Shown here piece by piece: positions 46,953-58,151 of a stretch of DNA of 64,000 nucleotides; within the stretch, counting starts at the first letter, position 1; each line of letters begins with the position of its first letter. A program made the translations under genes and the position numbers. The stretch lies in the sequence record NC_103192.1; one strand, written 5' to 3'. Origin of the DNA: a phage. The notes beneath the pieces were generated by a model, which saw only the letters and a list, made by a program, of their open reading frames with translations, made no database searches and was not told the DNA's origin.

Positions 46953-46988
46953 TAAATAAAAAGGGGCCAAACGGCCCCTTTCTTTTTA
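46953..46988. terminator. bidirectional intrinsic terminator between convergent operons
   Basis: stem AGGGGCC-AAAC-GGCCCCT flanked by an A-run upstream and T-run downstream. Confidence 0.7.
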
Positions 46989-51412: not shown

Positions 51413-52873
51413 TTATTTAGCGTACCCGATCAATTCTACAGTTTTCCCAAAGCTTGGGATATAATTTTTATTATACCCTTCGGTGAGAACCCATAAAGTA
51501 TCGTACTTTTTCCACTTGTTGTCAACAACCTTTTGTTCAAAGTTGTGCTCAAAGTAGAGGTCGGTCAGGACGATGACATCTTTTGCATTTGGTATGTTAG
51601 CGTCCAGATACTCGAACACGCAAGCGGCTGTTGTGCCCCATGTTGAGTGGACCTCGTAGTTGATCATCTCGTCGATGTTCCCGCGAGTGTATACTTTAAC
51701 CTCTCCAACCTCAGTTGACCAACAGAACATCGTAACCTTGAACTCTTTATACAGATTGCACAACCCAGTGATCTCATTGAACATTTTCTTTAAAGTTCTT
51801 TGTGAGATCGATCCAGAAACGTCTAAAGCCACCACAATATCTATAGTGTTTTCCGGATTACGACCAGGAACAACAACGTGCTGATTCTTGTTTATAGCTC
51901 CAACTTTTCGCATTGTGCTGGTCAAAGACCCAGATCGGCGACCAGGTTTTCTGTAGGTTAGTTCAGCCTTTCGTTTAGACAGCATACGTTGCTTAATGAT
52001 GTCTATATAATTGATTACAGGCTTGCCTCTGTTTTTGACAAACTCGCGCACAGCCTCAGGGCAACGACCTCCGGAAGCTTGCATTGCTGCTTCCAACATG
52101 TCACCAGAGTCCTGCATGGCCTGATCTTTATCAGATTGACTGATCACGGGTTGTGGCTGATCATACCCCATAGCCTTTCCAAGATCGTCACTTGTGCCAC
52201 CGTTCCCACTCATGTGATCATCGGTTTGTCGTTTATCTCCTTGAGAGTTCTCGCCTTTACCGTTCTTACTTTTACCACTATTCTGATCTCTTTGCTTATC
52301 AAGAACTGCATAGACGTTCTCAGCAATCCATCCATGGAACCTCATGTCACAGTAGCAACTAGCTAAGAAGCCAAAAGGCTTACCTTTTACGAACGTAGTG
52401 CTTTTCCCCTTCGGAAAGAAAACACAAGGGGGCTTGCTAAAGTCAACCACAAGACCTGTGTTGATAACATGATCACAGGCAATATTGAACAGTTCCGGCT
52501 CAAAGCTTTTACCACGGACCAGATGATCGCAGATAATATGCCCCACTTCATGCGATAGAAGAAAGGCCACCTCTTTCACAGATTTGGGGGAATAGAAAAC
52601 CTCAGCCATCTCAAACTGCTCGTCAGTCAGAGATGCTTTAAGAATGGTTTTGCGCTCATCAGCCAGTCCCATAATGAACTCGGGACTGTAATAAATGCGT
52701 TTATGGTCTGTTGCCATGGTGGAGCACCATGTGTGGTTTTCTACGAACTGCAGCCCTGACAATAGTGTGCCATAAAACGGCAGTTTTTCAAGAAGATACA
52801 TGCGTGCTGCCTGCAGCATTCGCAAGGCGTCATCTTTTTGTGCGGCAATGATTTCTGAACTTCTGCTATCCAT
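51413..52873 (-). CDS. VWA-domain protein with N-terminal HExxH metallopeptidase-like domain
   Basis: zinc motif SHEVGHIICDH; C-terminal MIDAS-like VVALDVSGSIS; ATG 52873 with GGAG RBS (track start 52894 is TTG inside a hairpin). Confidence 0.6.
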   Translation of the reverse strand: MDSRSSEIIAAQKDDALRMLQAARMYLLEKLPFYGTLLSGLQFVENHTWCSTMATDHKRIYYSPEFIMGLADERKTILKASLTDEQFEMAEVFYSPKSVKEVAFLLSHEVGHIICDHLVRGKSFEPELFNIACDHVINTGLVVDFSKPPCVFFPKGKSTTFVKGKPFGFLASCYCDMRFHGWIAENVYAVLDKQRDQNSGKSKNGKGENSQGDKRQTDDHMSGNGGTSDDLGKAMGYDQPQPVISQSDKDQAMQDSGDMLEAAMQASGGRCPEAVREFVKNRGKPVINYIDIIKQRMLSKRKAELTYRKPGRRSGSLTSTMRKVGAINKNQHVVVPGRNPENTIDIVVALDVSGSISQRTLKKMFNEITGLCNLYKEFKVTMFCWSTEVGEVKVYTRGNIDEMINYEVHSTWGTTAACVFEYLDANIPNAKDVIVLTDLYFEHNFEQKVVDNKWKKYDTLWVLTEGYNKNYIPSFGKTVELIGYAK

Positions 52874-52885
52874 TAAAACTCCAGA

Positions 52886-52902
52886 AGGGGCCAACGGCCC
52901 CT
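52886..52902 (-). terminator. hairpin between minus-strand genes (partial terminator/processing site)
   Basis: AGGGGCC-AAC-GGCCCCT inverted repeat with U-run downstream on the minus strand. Confidence 0.35.
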
Positions 52903-52906
52903 GTCA

Positions 52907-53896
52907 TTATTTAACGTGCTTGAAAATACCAGCCAACTCGGTCATTGTCATGCGAGTGGTCTTCATAAGGTCTGTCATAGCCTTCTCCATAATTGGAGAT
53001 ACTACCATAAAGTTACCTTTGGTGAAACCTTTATTCCAGTCGGTCACTAATAACGGTTTAAGTCCTGCCCCGAAACGCTCACCAGTTAAAGCACAGCATT
53101 TTCGAATGTACGTGCTCTTAAATTGGCTGAATGACAGATCAACTTTCATACCTGCATCGTAGAACGTCTGGCAATAGAAAGTGTAGGCTTTAGCAATCTC
53201 AACATCGTCAGGCAGTGCAGGAACCTCTTCTGTAAGCCCTTCTTCGACCTTTTGAGGCTCTTTTTCCTCTTCGTGAGCCTGTTGCGTCATTTCTTCAATC
53301 TCTTCTGTTACAGGCTCATTTACGATGTCAGAAATGTGCTTGTTGGCTTCACGATTAGCCATGAAGTTTTTAAAATCCTGCATTGGTGACATATCTTCCT
53401 CCCATTCTTCGTCAAAGAGTGCCAGTTTATCCTCTTCCGTTCCATATTGCAAGATGAAATCTTCAAAAGTGTAATCACCTTTCAATTTCTCCATGCGCTC
53501 TTCGCTCAGGTGAAGCATCATCTGCTGGACAATTTTTCGATCAGTTTTGTCTTTAATCAAGACTGCGGTCTTTTTATCTACCAGACAGTCCTTCAGGGAG
53601 TTGCACCTTAACCCAACCACACAACAGTTATCAATTGCGTAAGGACCTTCATCATCTATCCGCTCTAAGGATGGATAGAAAGGATTGCCCAACCCGTTTT
53701 CATCTGTGTGCATGTCAAAAGGTATAAGGGTATAGTCGCACACCCCCTCTCCTAAAAGTTTTTTACCAAATAGGAGGTATTCTTCCCATGACAGGTTGAA
53801 CTCTATATCTCGTTTCCGTGCATTATTTTGTTTGCGTCTGTATTTTTTGAGCAGGCGCTCTAACTCTTCTGGTGTATAATATTTTTCAAGATTCAT
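52907..53896 (-). CDS. HNH-like nuclease-domain protein (two Cys-rich modules, acidic linker)
   Basis: segment GVCDYT...HTDENG...SLERIDDEGPYAIDNCCVVGLRCNSLK fits an HNH-like C...N...CxxCN..K pattern; second Cys module near C-terminus; ATG 53896 preferred (53962 is TTG without RBS). Confidence 0.4.
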   Translation of the reverse strand: MNLEKYYTPEELERLLKKYRRKQNNARKRDIEFNLSWEEYLLFGKKLLGEGVCDYTLIPFDMHTDENGLGNPFYPSLERIDDEGPYAIDNCCVVGLRCNSLKDCLVDKKTAVLIKDKTDRKIVQQMMLHLSEERMEKLKGDYTFEDFILQYGTEEDKLALFDEEWEEDMSPMQDFKNFMANREANKHISDIVNEPVTEEIEEMTQQAHEEEKEPQKVEEGLTEEVPALPDDVEIAKAYTFYCQTFYDAGMKVDLSFSQFKSTYIRKCCALTGERFGAGLKPLLVTDWNKGFTKGNFMVVSPIMEKAMTDLMKTTRMTMTELAGIFKHVK

Positions 53897-53927
53897 AAGT
53901 CGTCTCTTGTGCTTTGTAGGTGAAGAA

Positions 53928-53956
53928 ATCTTATCAAGTGCCTCAACAGATGTCAA
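53928..53956 (-). promoter_or_regulatory. leftward promoter TTGACA-17-TAAGAT
   Basis: -35 is reverse complement of 53951-53956, -10 is reverse complement of 53928-53933. Confidence 0.5.
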
Positions 53957-53969
53957 CCTCAAAAACGTG

Positions 53970-53998
53970 TTGACTTTACTCTAAATCCACGATATAGT
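53970..53998 (+). promoter_or_regulatory. rightward promoter TTGACT-17-TATAGT
   Basis: -35 at 53970-53975, -10 at 53993-53998. Confidence 0.5.
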
Positions 53999-54038
53999 GC
54001 ACCCATTCTAAAGAAAACGAACACAGGATCACTTAATC

Positions 54039-54938
54039 ATGTCAAATCTTAACAGCTTTAGCACTCGGTGGAAACAAGATATCACAACCAATCTCTCAGC
54101 AGGGGATATCCTTTCTGCAATTTACGAGGCCTTGGATGATAAAGCTACTTCAAAATCGGTCTGTACCAACCCGCTAATTCCTATAGTAATGAAGGTGATT
54201 GAACGTAGGTTGGTATCCGGATCTGATAAGTGGACATATCTGGATAATGGAGGCCACACTTACTCCAACGGATATGTTGATATAAAAGTGGAATACGCAG
54301 TATCATATCGCCGGAGCGGCTCTGTAACTTTCAACTTCTCTGGTGGTTTCCGATCTCTGGCAACTTCACCTTTTGTTTCCTCAGAGGAGAAGTTTGAACT
54401 TCCGTTCCTTTGGATGATGGCTAACGCGACAGGCAAAACCCCTGTAAGCATTCGCGTAAAATACAACTACAACGGATCTAGTAAGATCTATGCCGAGAGT
54501 GTCTCAGCAAGTTTTTATTTTGTGATGGGAGATGGAATCCTCAAACATATAAAGATGTGTGATATGCATGATGTTATAAATGAAGTAACTGATAAGAATG
54601 TTCTAGTAAAAGACCTCAACAATTTTTATACACCTGGAGACTATTACGTCAACCGTCCACTGTGCATCTTTAATGCCGCACACCCTTTAGGTGAGTATTT
54701 GATCGCCAATAGCGATATTGCCAATAACCGCTTCGAGGTAGCAAGAGTACAGAATGAGGTGTTGACATCTTGCAAGAGTGGTGATAAGTTTACCGAAGAA
54801 GAGATGAGTGTTTTAGAAATGATGGGATATAAGTGTAGCCTTTGGGTAGATGAGGTGTTTAATGACGGCATCTATGGACAGGATATTTACCCGTTAAAGA
54901 AGTATACTGATTCCAGTTTAATTTACGCGGAGATTTGA
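54039..54938 (+). CDS. hypothetical protein
   Basis: 299 aa, first gene of the rightward operon. Confidence 0.45.
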   Translation: MSNLNSFSTRWKQDITTNLSAGDILSAIYEALDDKATSKSVCTNPLIPIVMKVIERRLVSGSDKWTYLDNGGHTYSNGYVDIKVEYAVSYRRSGSVTFNFSGGFRSLATSPFVSSEEKFELPFLWMMANATGKTPVSIRVKYNYNGSSKIYAESVSASFYFVMGDGILKHIKMCDMHDVINEVTDKNVLVKDLNNFYTPGDYYVNRPLCIFNAAHPLGEYLIANSDIANNRFEVARVQNEVLTSCKSGDKFTEEEMSVLEMMGYKCSLWVDEVFNDGIYGQDIYPLKKYTDSSLIYAEI

Positions 54939-54940
54939 CT

Positions 54941-55213
54941 ATGATGAAGTCATGTGGTAGTGTATATTATGTTGGTGAGGATGTTCAGGCAGATAGTGTG
55001 TGGAAATCCATTAAGTCCACCACCGACGATGCCTTCTTGAGCGGGTTATGTTTCCCCAATCCAGGAGACATTCTCCCTCACCCTGGAGATTTTGTTGTCA
55101 ACAAGACGGACGGTTATACCGTGTGCCTGATGGTTGAAAAAATCTTTTTAGACACTAGACACAATCACCGTCTTGTGCTAAAATTTCAAGAATGTAAAAT
55201 GACAGTTGCCTAA
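54941..55213 (+). CDS. hypothetical protein
   Basis: ATG 54941 with GGAGA RBS (track start 54935 is TTG). Confidence 0.35.
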   Translation: MMKSCGSVYYVGEDVQADSVWKSIKSTTDDAFLSGLCFPNPGDILPHPGDFVVNKTDGYTVCLMVEKIFLDTRHNHRLVLKFQECKMTVA

Positions 55214-56267: not shown

Positions 56268-56537
56268 ATGTTATACCAGCAATATGAACTTCGTGCAGAA
56301 AAAGAGTTAAATTTTGACAAAGATATTCACAGATATTATTATGGGAAAGTTAGAGGGCAAGCAAGAAAGTGTACTCCAACACTCTTTTATGCCAGCAGAC
56401 GACTAGCGCCAGAAGAGGCAACAGCAGAAAGGGTTGCATATGGCTGGAGAGTTGCGTATGATATTGACAGATCCGATGTGATGTCTGTTTTGGAAAACTT
56501 TGAAAACACTTACACACAAGTAGAGGACTTTTACTAA
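56268..56537 (+). CDS. hypothetical protein
   Basis: 89 aa, AAGGAG RBS. Confidence 0.4.
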   Translation: MLYQQYELRAEKELNFDKDIHRYYYGKVRGQARKCTPTLFYASRRLAPEEATAERVAYGWRVAYDIDRSDVMSVLENFENTYTQVEDFY

Positions 56538-57721
56538 TGTCAAGAAACGTATTCGAAAGTGGTCAAATCACTGTCCGCGAGTTGCCAGCTATTATTCAAT
56601 TTGCCCAGCGTCATAACCGATCTGTCCTGATTTTAGGACCGATGGGTGTGGGGAAGAGCCAGGTGATGAAGCAGATTGCTGATAATATGTTCGGTGAGCG
56701 AGATGACAACCTGGTTGACGTGCGGCTGTCAGATAAAGATCCTGCTGACTTGTCTGGACTACCTATCCCTGTAGAGGCAGATGGAACTACACGCACAGTG
56801 TTTGCAATTCCAGAATTTTGGCCTGCAGACTCGGACTGGAGCGGAATTATCTTTCTGGATGAGCTTACTCATGCAGATAACTACCTGCAGAAGGTTGCAA
56901 TGCAAATTATGCTCGACCACAAGTGCGGCACCTATGCATTTCCTAAGGGCTCTGTTTTTGTAGCTGCAGGTAACCGTTCTACAGATGGTACGGTTCTTTC
57001 GGCGCTCGAAGCTCCTCTGGCTAACCGCTTTATCATTGTAGAAGTTACAAGCAATGCAGAGGTGTTTATTGAGGACTATGCATTCCTTAATGGGGTGCAC
57101 TCCTCTGTAATTGGATATTTGAAAAGAGTTCCATCAGCTATTGATAATTATGAGGCTATGGCTGAGATTAATTGTCCATCTTTTGCCACACCGCGATCTT
57201 GGGTTGCTGCATCTGATATCTTGCACGATTTTGACAGCGGTATTATTTCTGACGCTATGGCCCGTGTTCTTCTGCAAGGTGCTATTGGTCACACTGCAGC
57301 GGTAGAGATCTGGACTTACCACACCAAGAAACGCAATTTACCGGAAATCGGTCGGATTATGGCAGGTGGCTGCAAAGAATACGTAGGTCCTAAGCAGCCA
57401 GACATTTTGTGGATTCTTGGATCTGAAGGTTGTATCGCTATTCGTAATATGATGGAAAATGCAAGTATCTCAGACGAAGATCTTGTCAGCTGCGTGGCAA
57501 ACTTCCTCGATTTCCTTTGGGAAAACTTCAAGGACGAGAACCGAGATTTTGTATTCTCAGTCTTTATGGCGATGATGAAACCTAATGCCTTAGGAAATGC
57601 CTTGCTTATCGGTAAAGGGCGTGACAAGATTGTTGCTCAGCTGATCAAAGCATACCCAAACCTGATGAAGATTGTAAAAGAGTTTGGTGAAGAGTTTAGC
57701 GCCATTTTGGCTAAAGCTTAA
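56537..57721 (+). CDS. MoxR-like AAA+ ATPase (AAA_5 type)
   Basis: Walker A LILGPMGVGKSQ, Walker B IIFLDELTHA, sensor-1 FVAAGNRS, Arg-finger region LEAPLANRF. Confidence 0.65.
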   Translation: MSRNVFESGQITVRELPAIIQFAQRHNRSVLILGPMGVGKSQVMKQIADNMFGERDDNLVDVRLSDKDPADLSGLPIPVEADGTTRTVFAIPEFWPADSDWSGIIFLDELTHADNYLQKVAMQIMLDHKCGTYAFPKGSVFVAAGNRSTDGTVLSALEAPLANRFIIVEVTSNAEVFIEDYAFLNGVHSSVIGYLKRVPSAIDNYEAMAEINCPSFATPRSWVAASDILHDFDSGIISDAMARVLLQGAIGHTAAVEIWTYHTKKRNLPEIGRIMAGGCKEYVGPKQPDILWILGSEGCIAIRNMMENASISDEDLVSCVANFLDFLWENFKDENRDFVFSVFMAMMKPNALGNALLIGKGRDKIVAQLIKAYPNLMKIVKEFGEEFSAILAKA

Positions 57722-58123: not shown

Positions 58124-58151
58124 CCCCCGCTTCGGCGGGGATTTTCTATTT
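58124..58151 (+). terminator. rho-independent terminator with UUCG tetraloop
   Basis: CCCCCGC-TTCG-GCGGGG then ATTTTCTATTT. Confidence 0.7.

Follow-up and report, generated by a model that had tools for sequence, protein, structure and literature searches.

Back-to-back sigma-70-type promoters predicted between two divergent early gene units of an rV5-like Vequintavirus

The window analysed here, a stretch of 64,000 nucleotides of phage DNA (NC_103192.1), comes from a Vequintavirus, that is, an rV5/FV3-like E. coli myophage, as judged from the matches to positions 52900-55200. This segment matched 117 phage records at a coverage of at least 80%, all of them from genus Vequintavirus. The best matches were Escherichia phages YP-6 and FV3 (~97% identity), and the gene order around the promoter pair described below is the same in rV5, FV3 and YP-6 as in the window. 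Sixteen GenBank records named 'Campylobacter phage' (MG0656xx; host given as C. jejuni in 15 of them) share 90-96% identity with the same segment and are probably mislabelled or contaminant genomes.

Two gene units diverge from a 142-bp gap that extends between an ATG at 53896 on the minus strand and an ATG at 54039 on the plus strand. The leftward unit (minus strand) is composed of a gene for an Srd-like protein of 329 aa (52907..53896, homologue of rV5 gp11), a gene combining a DUF2201_N metallopeptidase and a VWA-like domain (51413-52894, start near 52873, roughly 486-493 aa, rV5 gp12) and small ORFs up to a bidirectional terminator at 46960-46981. This terminator, AAAGGGGCCAAACGGCCCCTTT, is flanked on either side by T runs and is the counterpart of rV5 t026/t027. 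It lies at a local maximum of the cumulative GC skew, at the point of convergence of the structural-gene block with the leftward early unit. The rightward unit (plus strand) starts with the homologue of rV5 gp10 (54039..54938, 299 aa), followed by five small ORFs, a MoxR-like AAA+ ATPase (56537-57721), one further ORF and an intrinsic terminator (58125..58151). The latter consists of CCCCGCTTCGGCGGGG (58125-58140) and a T-rich tail, is identical to rV5 t003 (-16 kcal/mol) and marks the boundary between the MoxR cluster and a second group of plus-strand genes, which encode a SleB-type hydrolase, rIIA, the product of the gene at the rIIB position and a PIF1-type helicase.

Several labels attached to the genes around this divergence point are weakly founded. 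The Srd-like protein matched PHROG 1400 'Srd anti-sigma factor' (E = 4.5e-12) and PHROG 4592 (E = 2.5e-13), a Pfam search gave no match for it, and related phage records call it 'anti-sigma factor'. This name is outdated, because T4 Srd is described as stimulating RNase E and speeding host mRNA decay (Qi et al. 2015, as cited in PMC7430671). A longer version of the Srd-like ORF, with a TTG start, would extend to 53962, and one GenBank record has a longer CDS; we rejected an upstream start because the region above the ATG at 53896 varies like non-coding DNA and holds a conserved promoter. The gp10 homologue belongs to PHROG 12338 (unknown function), gave no match in Pfam and NCBIfam searches and has a weak relative in both PVP-SE1 and Av-05, namely their divergent first gene. 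The label 'putative alpha 1-3 fucosyltransferase', widely copied among gp10 homologues, is based on a match to human FUT9 that is marginal (PDB 8d0o; E = 0.003, 20 bits), and the protein should best be treated as of unknown function. Finally, 'HNH endonuclease' is the RefSeq name (NC_011041, NC_019517) of both the Srd-like and the DUF2201/VWA proteins, and PHROGs use it likewise; Pfam detected no HNH domain in either protein, and the label looks like annotation propagation.

Proteins of the DUF2201/VWA kind are the partners with which MoxR ATPases usually work. Here, the two genes lie on opposite sides of the divergence point and not in one operon, and they are split likewise in Av-05 and Hena1. 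We also noted a GC-rich hairpin, AGGGGCC-GTT-GGCCCCT (52886-52902), located immediately after the stop of the Srd-like gene (52907) and shortly before the GGAG ribosome-binding site of the DUF2201/VWA gene. It is kept, with loop changes, in rV5 and in an IMG/VR relative, and a clade whose Srd is 62-65% identical has an equivalent hairpin with another stem, GGGGGC-TTTG-GCCCCC. This structure may be an attenuator or an RNA-stability/processing element.

The 142-bp gap wholly contains two promoter sites, each oriented toward its flanking gene. The leftward site, directed at the Srd-like gene and orthologous to rV5 P011, has a perfect TTGACA as its -35 (6/6; 53951..53956, minus strand), a 17-nt spacer and an extended -10 (53928..53936, minus strand) in which TG (53936-53935) and one base precede TAAGAT (53933-53928, 4/6); its discriminator is AT-rich. 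The rightward site, TTGACT-17-TATAGT (53970..53998, plus strand), has its -35 at 53970-53975 (5/6) and its -10 at 53993-53998 (5/6), and leads into a GC-rich discriminator, GCACCC (53999-54004). Both sites score 10/12 against the consensus. Direct reading and a consensus scan reproduced exactly the hexamers and spacers given in the initial annotation, as well as the 13 bp that it placed between the two -35 hexamers (53957-53969, CCTCAAAAACGTG). Between the -10 hexamers lie 59 bp (53933 to 53993), and the ends of the hexamers are separated from the ATG by 31 nt on the leftward side and 40 nt on the rightward side. A purine is found 7 nt past each -10, and the +1 positions predicted from this distance are A53921 (minus strand) and A54005 (plus strand), 84 bp apart. 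The predicted leader of the Srd-like mRNA would thus be 25 nt long (53897..53921, minus strand), with a weak GAGA-type ribosome-binding site; on the other side (53999..54038, plus strand), the predicted leader would have 34 nt and an AGGA ribosome-binding site at 54025-54028.

The 13-bp interval between the -35 hexamers (53957..53969) includes an A5 tract (53961-53965), at about -44 to -40 relative to the rightward promoter. Following the published UP-element consensus, this is presumably the place of a proximal UP subsite, and the tract may be a proximal UP-element-like sequence for the rightward promoter. Both sites present the features of a sigma-70 promoter, namely a -35, a -10 with A2 and T6, a spacer of 17 +/- 1 bp and a placement toward the gene, and the gap offers no alternative: each unit has in it a single well-placed promoter for its first gene. 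The reading of the pair as divergent promoters of sigma-70 type, placed where transcription changes direction, is supported; ORF orientation and the sign of the GC skew both change at the pair. Symmetric bidirectional promoters likewise give divergent transcription from a short AT-rich region; those of Warman et al. 2021 reportedly have overlapping -10 elements and start sites about 18 bp apart. In contrast to that type, the promoters of the window are fully separate, with back-to-back -35 hexamers and no shared -10.

This divergent pair is already known in rV5 as an in-silico prediction. Kropinski et al. 2013 (Virol J 10:76, PMC3606486) placed bidirectional promoters between rV5 genes 10 and 11 and proposed four transcription units, including '10-1-238-164' and '11-26'. 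Their Table S4 gives P010 as TTGACTTTACTCTAAATCTCCGATATAGT and P011 as TTGACATCTGTTGAGACAATTGATACGAT, the latter with TTGACA...TGATACGAT, and P11 is present as a regulatory feature in RefSeq NC_011041. Compared with P010, the rightward site has the same hexamers and the same 17-nt spacer length, with two spacer substitutions; compared with P011, the leftward site differs by one base of the -10 (TAAGAT versus TACGAT) and three spacer changes, the TG being kept. The 13-bp interval and the orthologous gp10/gp11 position are shared, at ~91% identity over the stretch. Alignment, the syntenic gp10/gp11 gap and the published table thus agree on orthology, and no substantive difference separates the sites of the window from those of rV5, which are computational predictions. 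We found no start-site mapping, transcriptome or expression data for Vequintavirinae phages in the searchable literature.

A 10/12 match taken alone is weak evidence because such matches are common: 43 sites scoring at least 10/12 were found in the 64-kb window, versus 15.9 +/- 3.9 expected from first-order Markov simulations. The pair is nevertheless more than chance would give. The probability of finding one site of at least 10/12 on each strand within 141 bp is ~2e-4, and 8 of the 43 sites are wholly non-coding, although non-coding DNA makes up only ~5.6% of the window; each of these eight lies 22-71 nt upstream of a start codon on the same strand (31 nt for the leftward site). Conservation within the genus, as read from the alignment of 14 Vequintavirus genomes (84-98% identity over the stretch), is a stronger argument than these chance statistics. 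Variation is limited to 2 of the 24 hexamer columns, whereas 53 of the 119 remaining intergenic columns vary (Fisher p = 9e-4); in the flanking coding sequence, 43 of 200 columns are variable. Both variable hexamer columns are position 3 of a -10, its least informative position. On the leftward side, the only change in the genus is TAAGAT/TACGAT, with an invariant TTGACA and TG; on the rightward side, it is TACAGT in one genome, with an invariant -35. The A5 tract and the rightward GCACCC are also invariant in the 14 genomes. The spacers vary at 8 of 17 (leftward) and 13 of 17 (rightward) columns, and their length is 17 nt in 14/14 genomes. Since hexamers and spacer length are fixed and spacer sequence is free, this pattern is the signature of promoters and not of a protein operator.

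Counterparts were also found outside the genus. In four IMG/VR contigs (clade L015-L018), Srd is 62-65% identical and the intergenic region is otherwise little similar. These contigs keep AGTCAA and TTGACA, 13/14 bp apart and with a T5-6 tract between them, and have new -10 hexamers at 17 nt on either side (TATTCT on one, TG-extended TAATGT or TAGTGT on the other), so that the hexamers and the A/T tract are all that this clade shares with the Vequintavirus gap. Seunavirus (PVP-SE1, GAP31), Mydovirus (KB57, Ro1), Avunavirus (Av-05), Henunavirus (Hena1) and further IMG/VR contigs likewise have an Srd-like gene at the head of a unit that is divergent from a gp10-like gene. In all 29 loci considered (the window and 28 others, from several genera), a promoter site made of a perfect TTGACA, a spacer of 16-18 nt and a good -10 lies 31-72 nt before the Srd-like ATG, and the PVP-SE1 record (GU070616) annotates the TTGACA site upstream of its Srd-like gene 218 as a promoter. 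PVP-SE1 and the Mydo-, Avuna- and Henunavirus loci resemble the window in their perfect TTGACA and divergent gp10-like gene; they have a 16-17-nt spacer, a -10 of nATAAT/GATACT type and 33-72 nt to the Srd-like start. Unlike in the window, however, the partner promoter of these loci is weaker (8-9/12), with just 3-4 bp between its -35 and that of Srd. Depending on G+C, about 12-25% of random sequences contain by chance a site of at least 8/12 within 25 bp, so the partner promoters of the distant genera rest on their recurrence across lineages rather than on individual examples. Acinetobacter phage ABPH49 is an exception, its Srd-like gene being away from a divergence point but keeping TTGACA-18-GATACT. 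The UP-like A tract is not consistent among the relatives with a 3-4-bp interval. A mini-hairpin, AACGGGA-N5-CCC, was observed just 5' of the ribosome-binding site in the Srd leader of Seuna-, Mydo- and Henunavirus, ~10-30 nt past the Srd -10 (loci L005, L006, L008, L009, L011 and L019-L031), with a fixed stem and a varying loop; it is absent from the window and from the Vequintavirus loci examined.

The initial annotation had the pair probably controlling both a small-ORF operon and a MoxR/rII/helicase operon. The part of this proposal that is supported is the presence of a well-placed predicted promoter for the first gene in each direction; control of the whole MoxR/rII/helicase block is not supported. 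An internal promoter, TTGACA-17-TATTAT (11/12; 56314..56342, plus strand), which corresponds to 'P4' of rV5, lies upstream of the MoxR gene, and the strong terminator at 58.1 kb follows; because these two elements intervene, the pair is not the sole control of the rII and helicase genes. On the leftward side, small ORFs are indeed present, but the unit opens with the 329-aa Srd-like gene and the DUF2201/VWA gene.

The idea of a regulatory switch point found no counterpart in the sequence, as we detected no operator repeats, no block other than the promoters that is conserved across clades and no recognisable DNA-binding regulator nearby. Such a switch point would be an operator switch resembling lambda PR/PRM, in which a phage DNA-binding protein placed between or over the promoters would set the direction of transcription. 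The lambda promoters are also back to back, with start sites about 82 bp apart, in a region with three operators and two flanking repressor genes. The pair of the window resembles them by its back-to-back sigma-70 promoters and a near-equal predicted separation (~84 bp), and in both cases the two polymerases could bind at once, with possible interference. Moreover, the opposed -35 hexamers form an inverted repeat, GTCAAC-N11-GTTGAC, and the rV5 authors speculated on an early/late-switch role for the Srd-like protein, the first leftward product (PMC3606486). However, operators and repressor genes such as those of lambda were undetected here, and these phages are virulent and need no immunity switch. 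A search for palindromes that a repressor could bind returned only the symmetry made by the -35 hexamers themselves, and a repeat search (seed 6) over 53850-54090 returned only trivial chance repeats of 9-11 nt. GTCAA-N(1-25)-TTGAC occurs at 6 sites in the window versus 2.4 expected, and since only the one at the promoter pair is intergenic, it does not constitute a repeated module; Rfam gave no match on 52700-54300 at E <= 1. The spacers, where operators are usually placed, vary within the genus, and outside it clade L015-L018 retains nothing beyond the promoter elements and the A/T tract. Among 24 neighbouring proteins searched with Pfam, NCBIfam and PHROGs, mostly orphans, none had a DNA-binding family above the Pfam curated cut-off. 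In the account of T4 Srd cited above, the target is RNase E and not DNA, and a direct feedback of Srd on the promoter pair is therefore not expected. Although a missing operator or regulator is negative evidence only, we consider such a switch quite unlikely. That the sites are chance matches, or that a single one works while the other unit is transcribed from elsewhere, would agree with the 43 matches at 10/12, most of which are intragenic and probably unused; but this is very unlikely given the low joint probability of the pair, the conservation of both sites in the genus and in a clade whose intergenic DNA is otherwise unalignable, and the need of each divergent unit for a promoter that the gap does not otherwise offer. 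The cumulative GC-skew minimum, located exactly at the pair, could suggest a replication origin. We regard this as extremely unlikely and rejected it, because the skew follows coding-strand orientation, flipping the opposite way at the convergent terminator (46960-46981), and origin-like repeats are absent (no iterons, DnaA-box clusters or AT-rich repeats in 53850-54090); the rV5 authors reached the same conclusion about the skew (PMC3606486).

The only new point of this analysis concerns the distance between the opposed -35 hexamers. It falls into two classes that differ by one turn of the helix: 13-14 bp in Vequintavirus and clade L015-L018, and 3-4 bp in Seuna-, Mydo-, Avuna- and Henunavirus and in two more IMG/VR lineages. 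A second divergent junction of rV5, between genes 81 and 82 and outside the window (NC_011041, 66730-66770), is also back to back, with a 3-bp interval (TTTCAA-GTG-TTGACA): the published P081, TTGAAA-17-TATACT, lies opposite an unlisted candidate, TTGACA-17-(TG)CAGGAT, facing gene 82. For this gene, the annotated ATG (position 480 of the extracted locus) would leave almost no leader, and the ATG at position 498, which has a GAGGA ribosome-binding site, seems a better candidate. The two spacing classes and the 81/82 junction would fit a coupled pair, in which selection acts on the helical phase of the two -35 hexamers. The polymerases would either help each other, through bent or underwound DNA that they share or through supercoil coupling, or exclude each other, through shared upstream (alpha-CTD) DNA, and the pair would act as a single unit instead of two independent promoters. 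The invariant A5 tract in the interval could point the same way, as could the invariant GC-rich GCACCC, of a type expected to need negative supercoiling (compare the 'unequal partners' of ilvY/ilvC). But the independent lineages number only about 6-8, the 3-4-bp class depends on partner promoters of 8-9/12, for which chance hits are expected at the rate given above, a single ancestral 10-bp indel could account for the two size classes, and conservation of the GC-rich discriminator stops at the genus. We therefore find a coupled pair unlikely as an explanation of this locus, and the broader proposal, that a -35 distance quantised by the helical turn reflects selection on phase and defines a conserved two-polymerase module across Vequintavirinae, is unlikely as well.

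In our preferred reading, which we consider likely, the pair is the start of two divergent early units, formed by host sigma-70-type promoters orthologous to rV5 P010/P011 and devoid of a dedicated switch. What the analysis shows directly is that the sequence elements are present, correctly placed, selectively conserved and orthologous to sites predicted earlier. From this, we infer that both promoters would fire early from the host polymerase and that no dedicated repressor acts on them. Briefly, once the genome enters the cell, unmodified E. coli sigma-70 RNA polymerase would soon be recruited to the two promoters. Transcription from the leftward one would then begin with the Srd-like gene, of host-takeover type, and continue into the DUF2201/VWA gene and the more distal small ORFs; from the rightward one, it would run from gp10 through the MoxR cluster, up to the 58.1-kb terminator. 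With ~84 bp between the predicted start sites, two bound polymerases need not overlap in their core contacts; the upstream (alpha-CTD) zone of each polymerase, at -40 to -60, would overlie the -35 of the other promoter. Any interplay would presumably be passive, through the negative supercoils left behind the polymerases or through competition for the shared upstream DNA.

Passive coupling by supercoils is plausible here by analogy with ilvY/ilvC of E. coli and Po/Pr of Pseudomonas, in which the negative supercoils of the stronger partner activate the weaker promoter. Like these systems, the pair of the window is made of non-overlapping divergent promoters within about 100 bp of each other (84 bp between the predicted start sites). 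An inequality of the ilvY/ilvC kind may also be present, the leftward promoter having an extended -10 and an AT-rich discriminator and the rightward one a GC-rich discriminator. However, ilvY/ilvC and Po/Pr have activators (IlvY and DmpR), for which the pair described here has no counterpart.

The significance of these results is mostly housekeeping. If the spacing classes do reflect selection on helical phase, the phage would have a protein-free means of balancing its two early units, with the bound polymerases helping or hindering each other via the upstream DNA they share and via local supercoiling. The conserved 3/13-bp spacing is an inexpensive system in which to test coupling between polymerases, or by supercoils, at back-to-back promoters. 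The pair could also serve as a compact bidirectional part in phage engineering. As far as sequence comparison can tell, the rV5 predictions transfer to this isolate and across the subfamily, and the predicted starts of two early units are confirmed for a widely used group of therapeutic and biocontrol E. coli phages.
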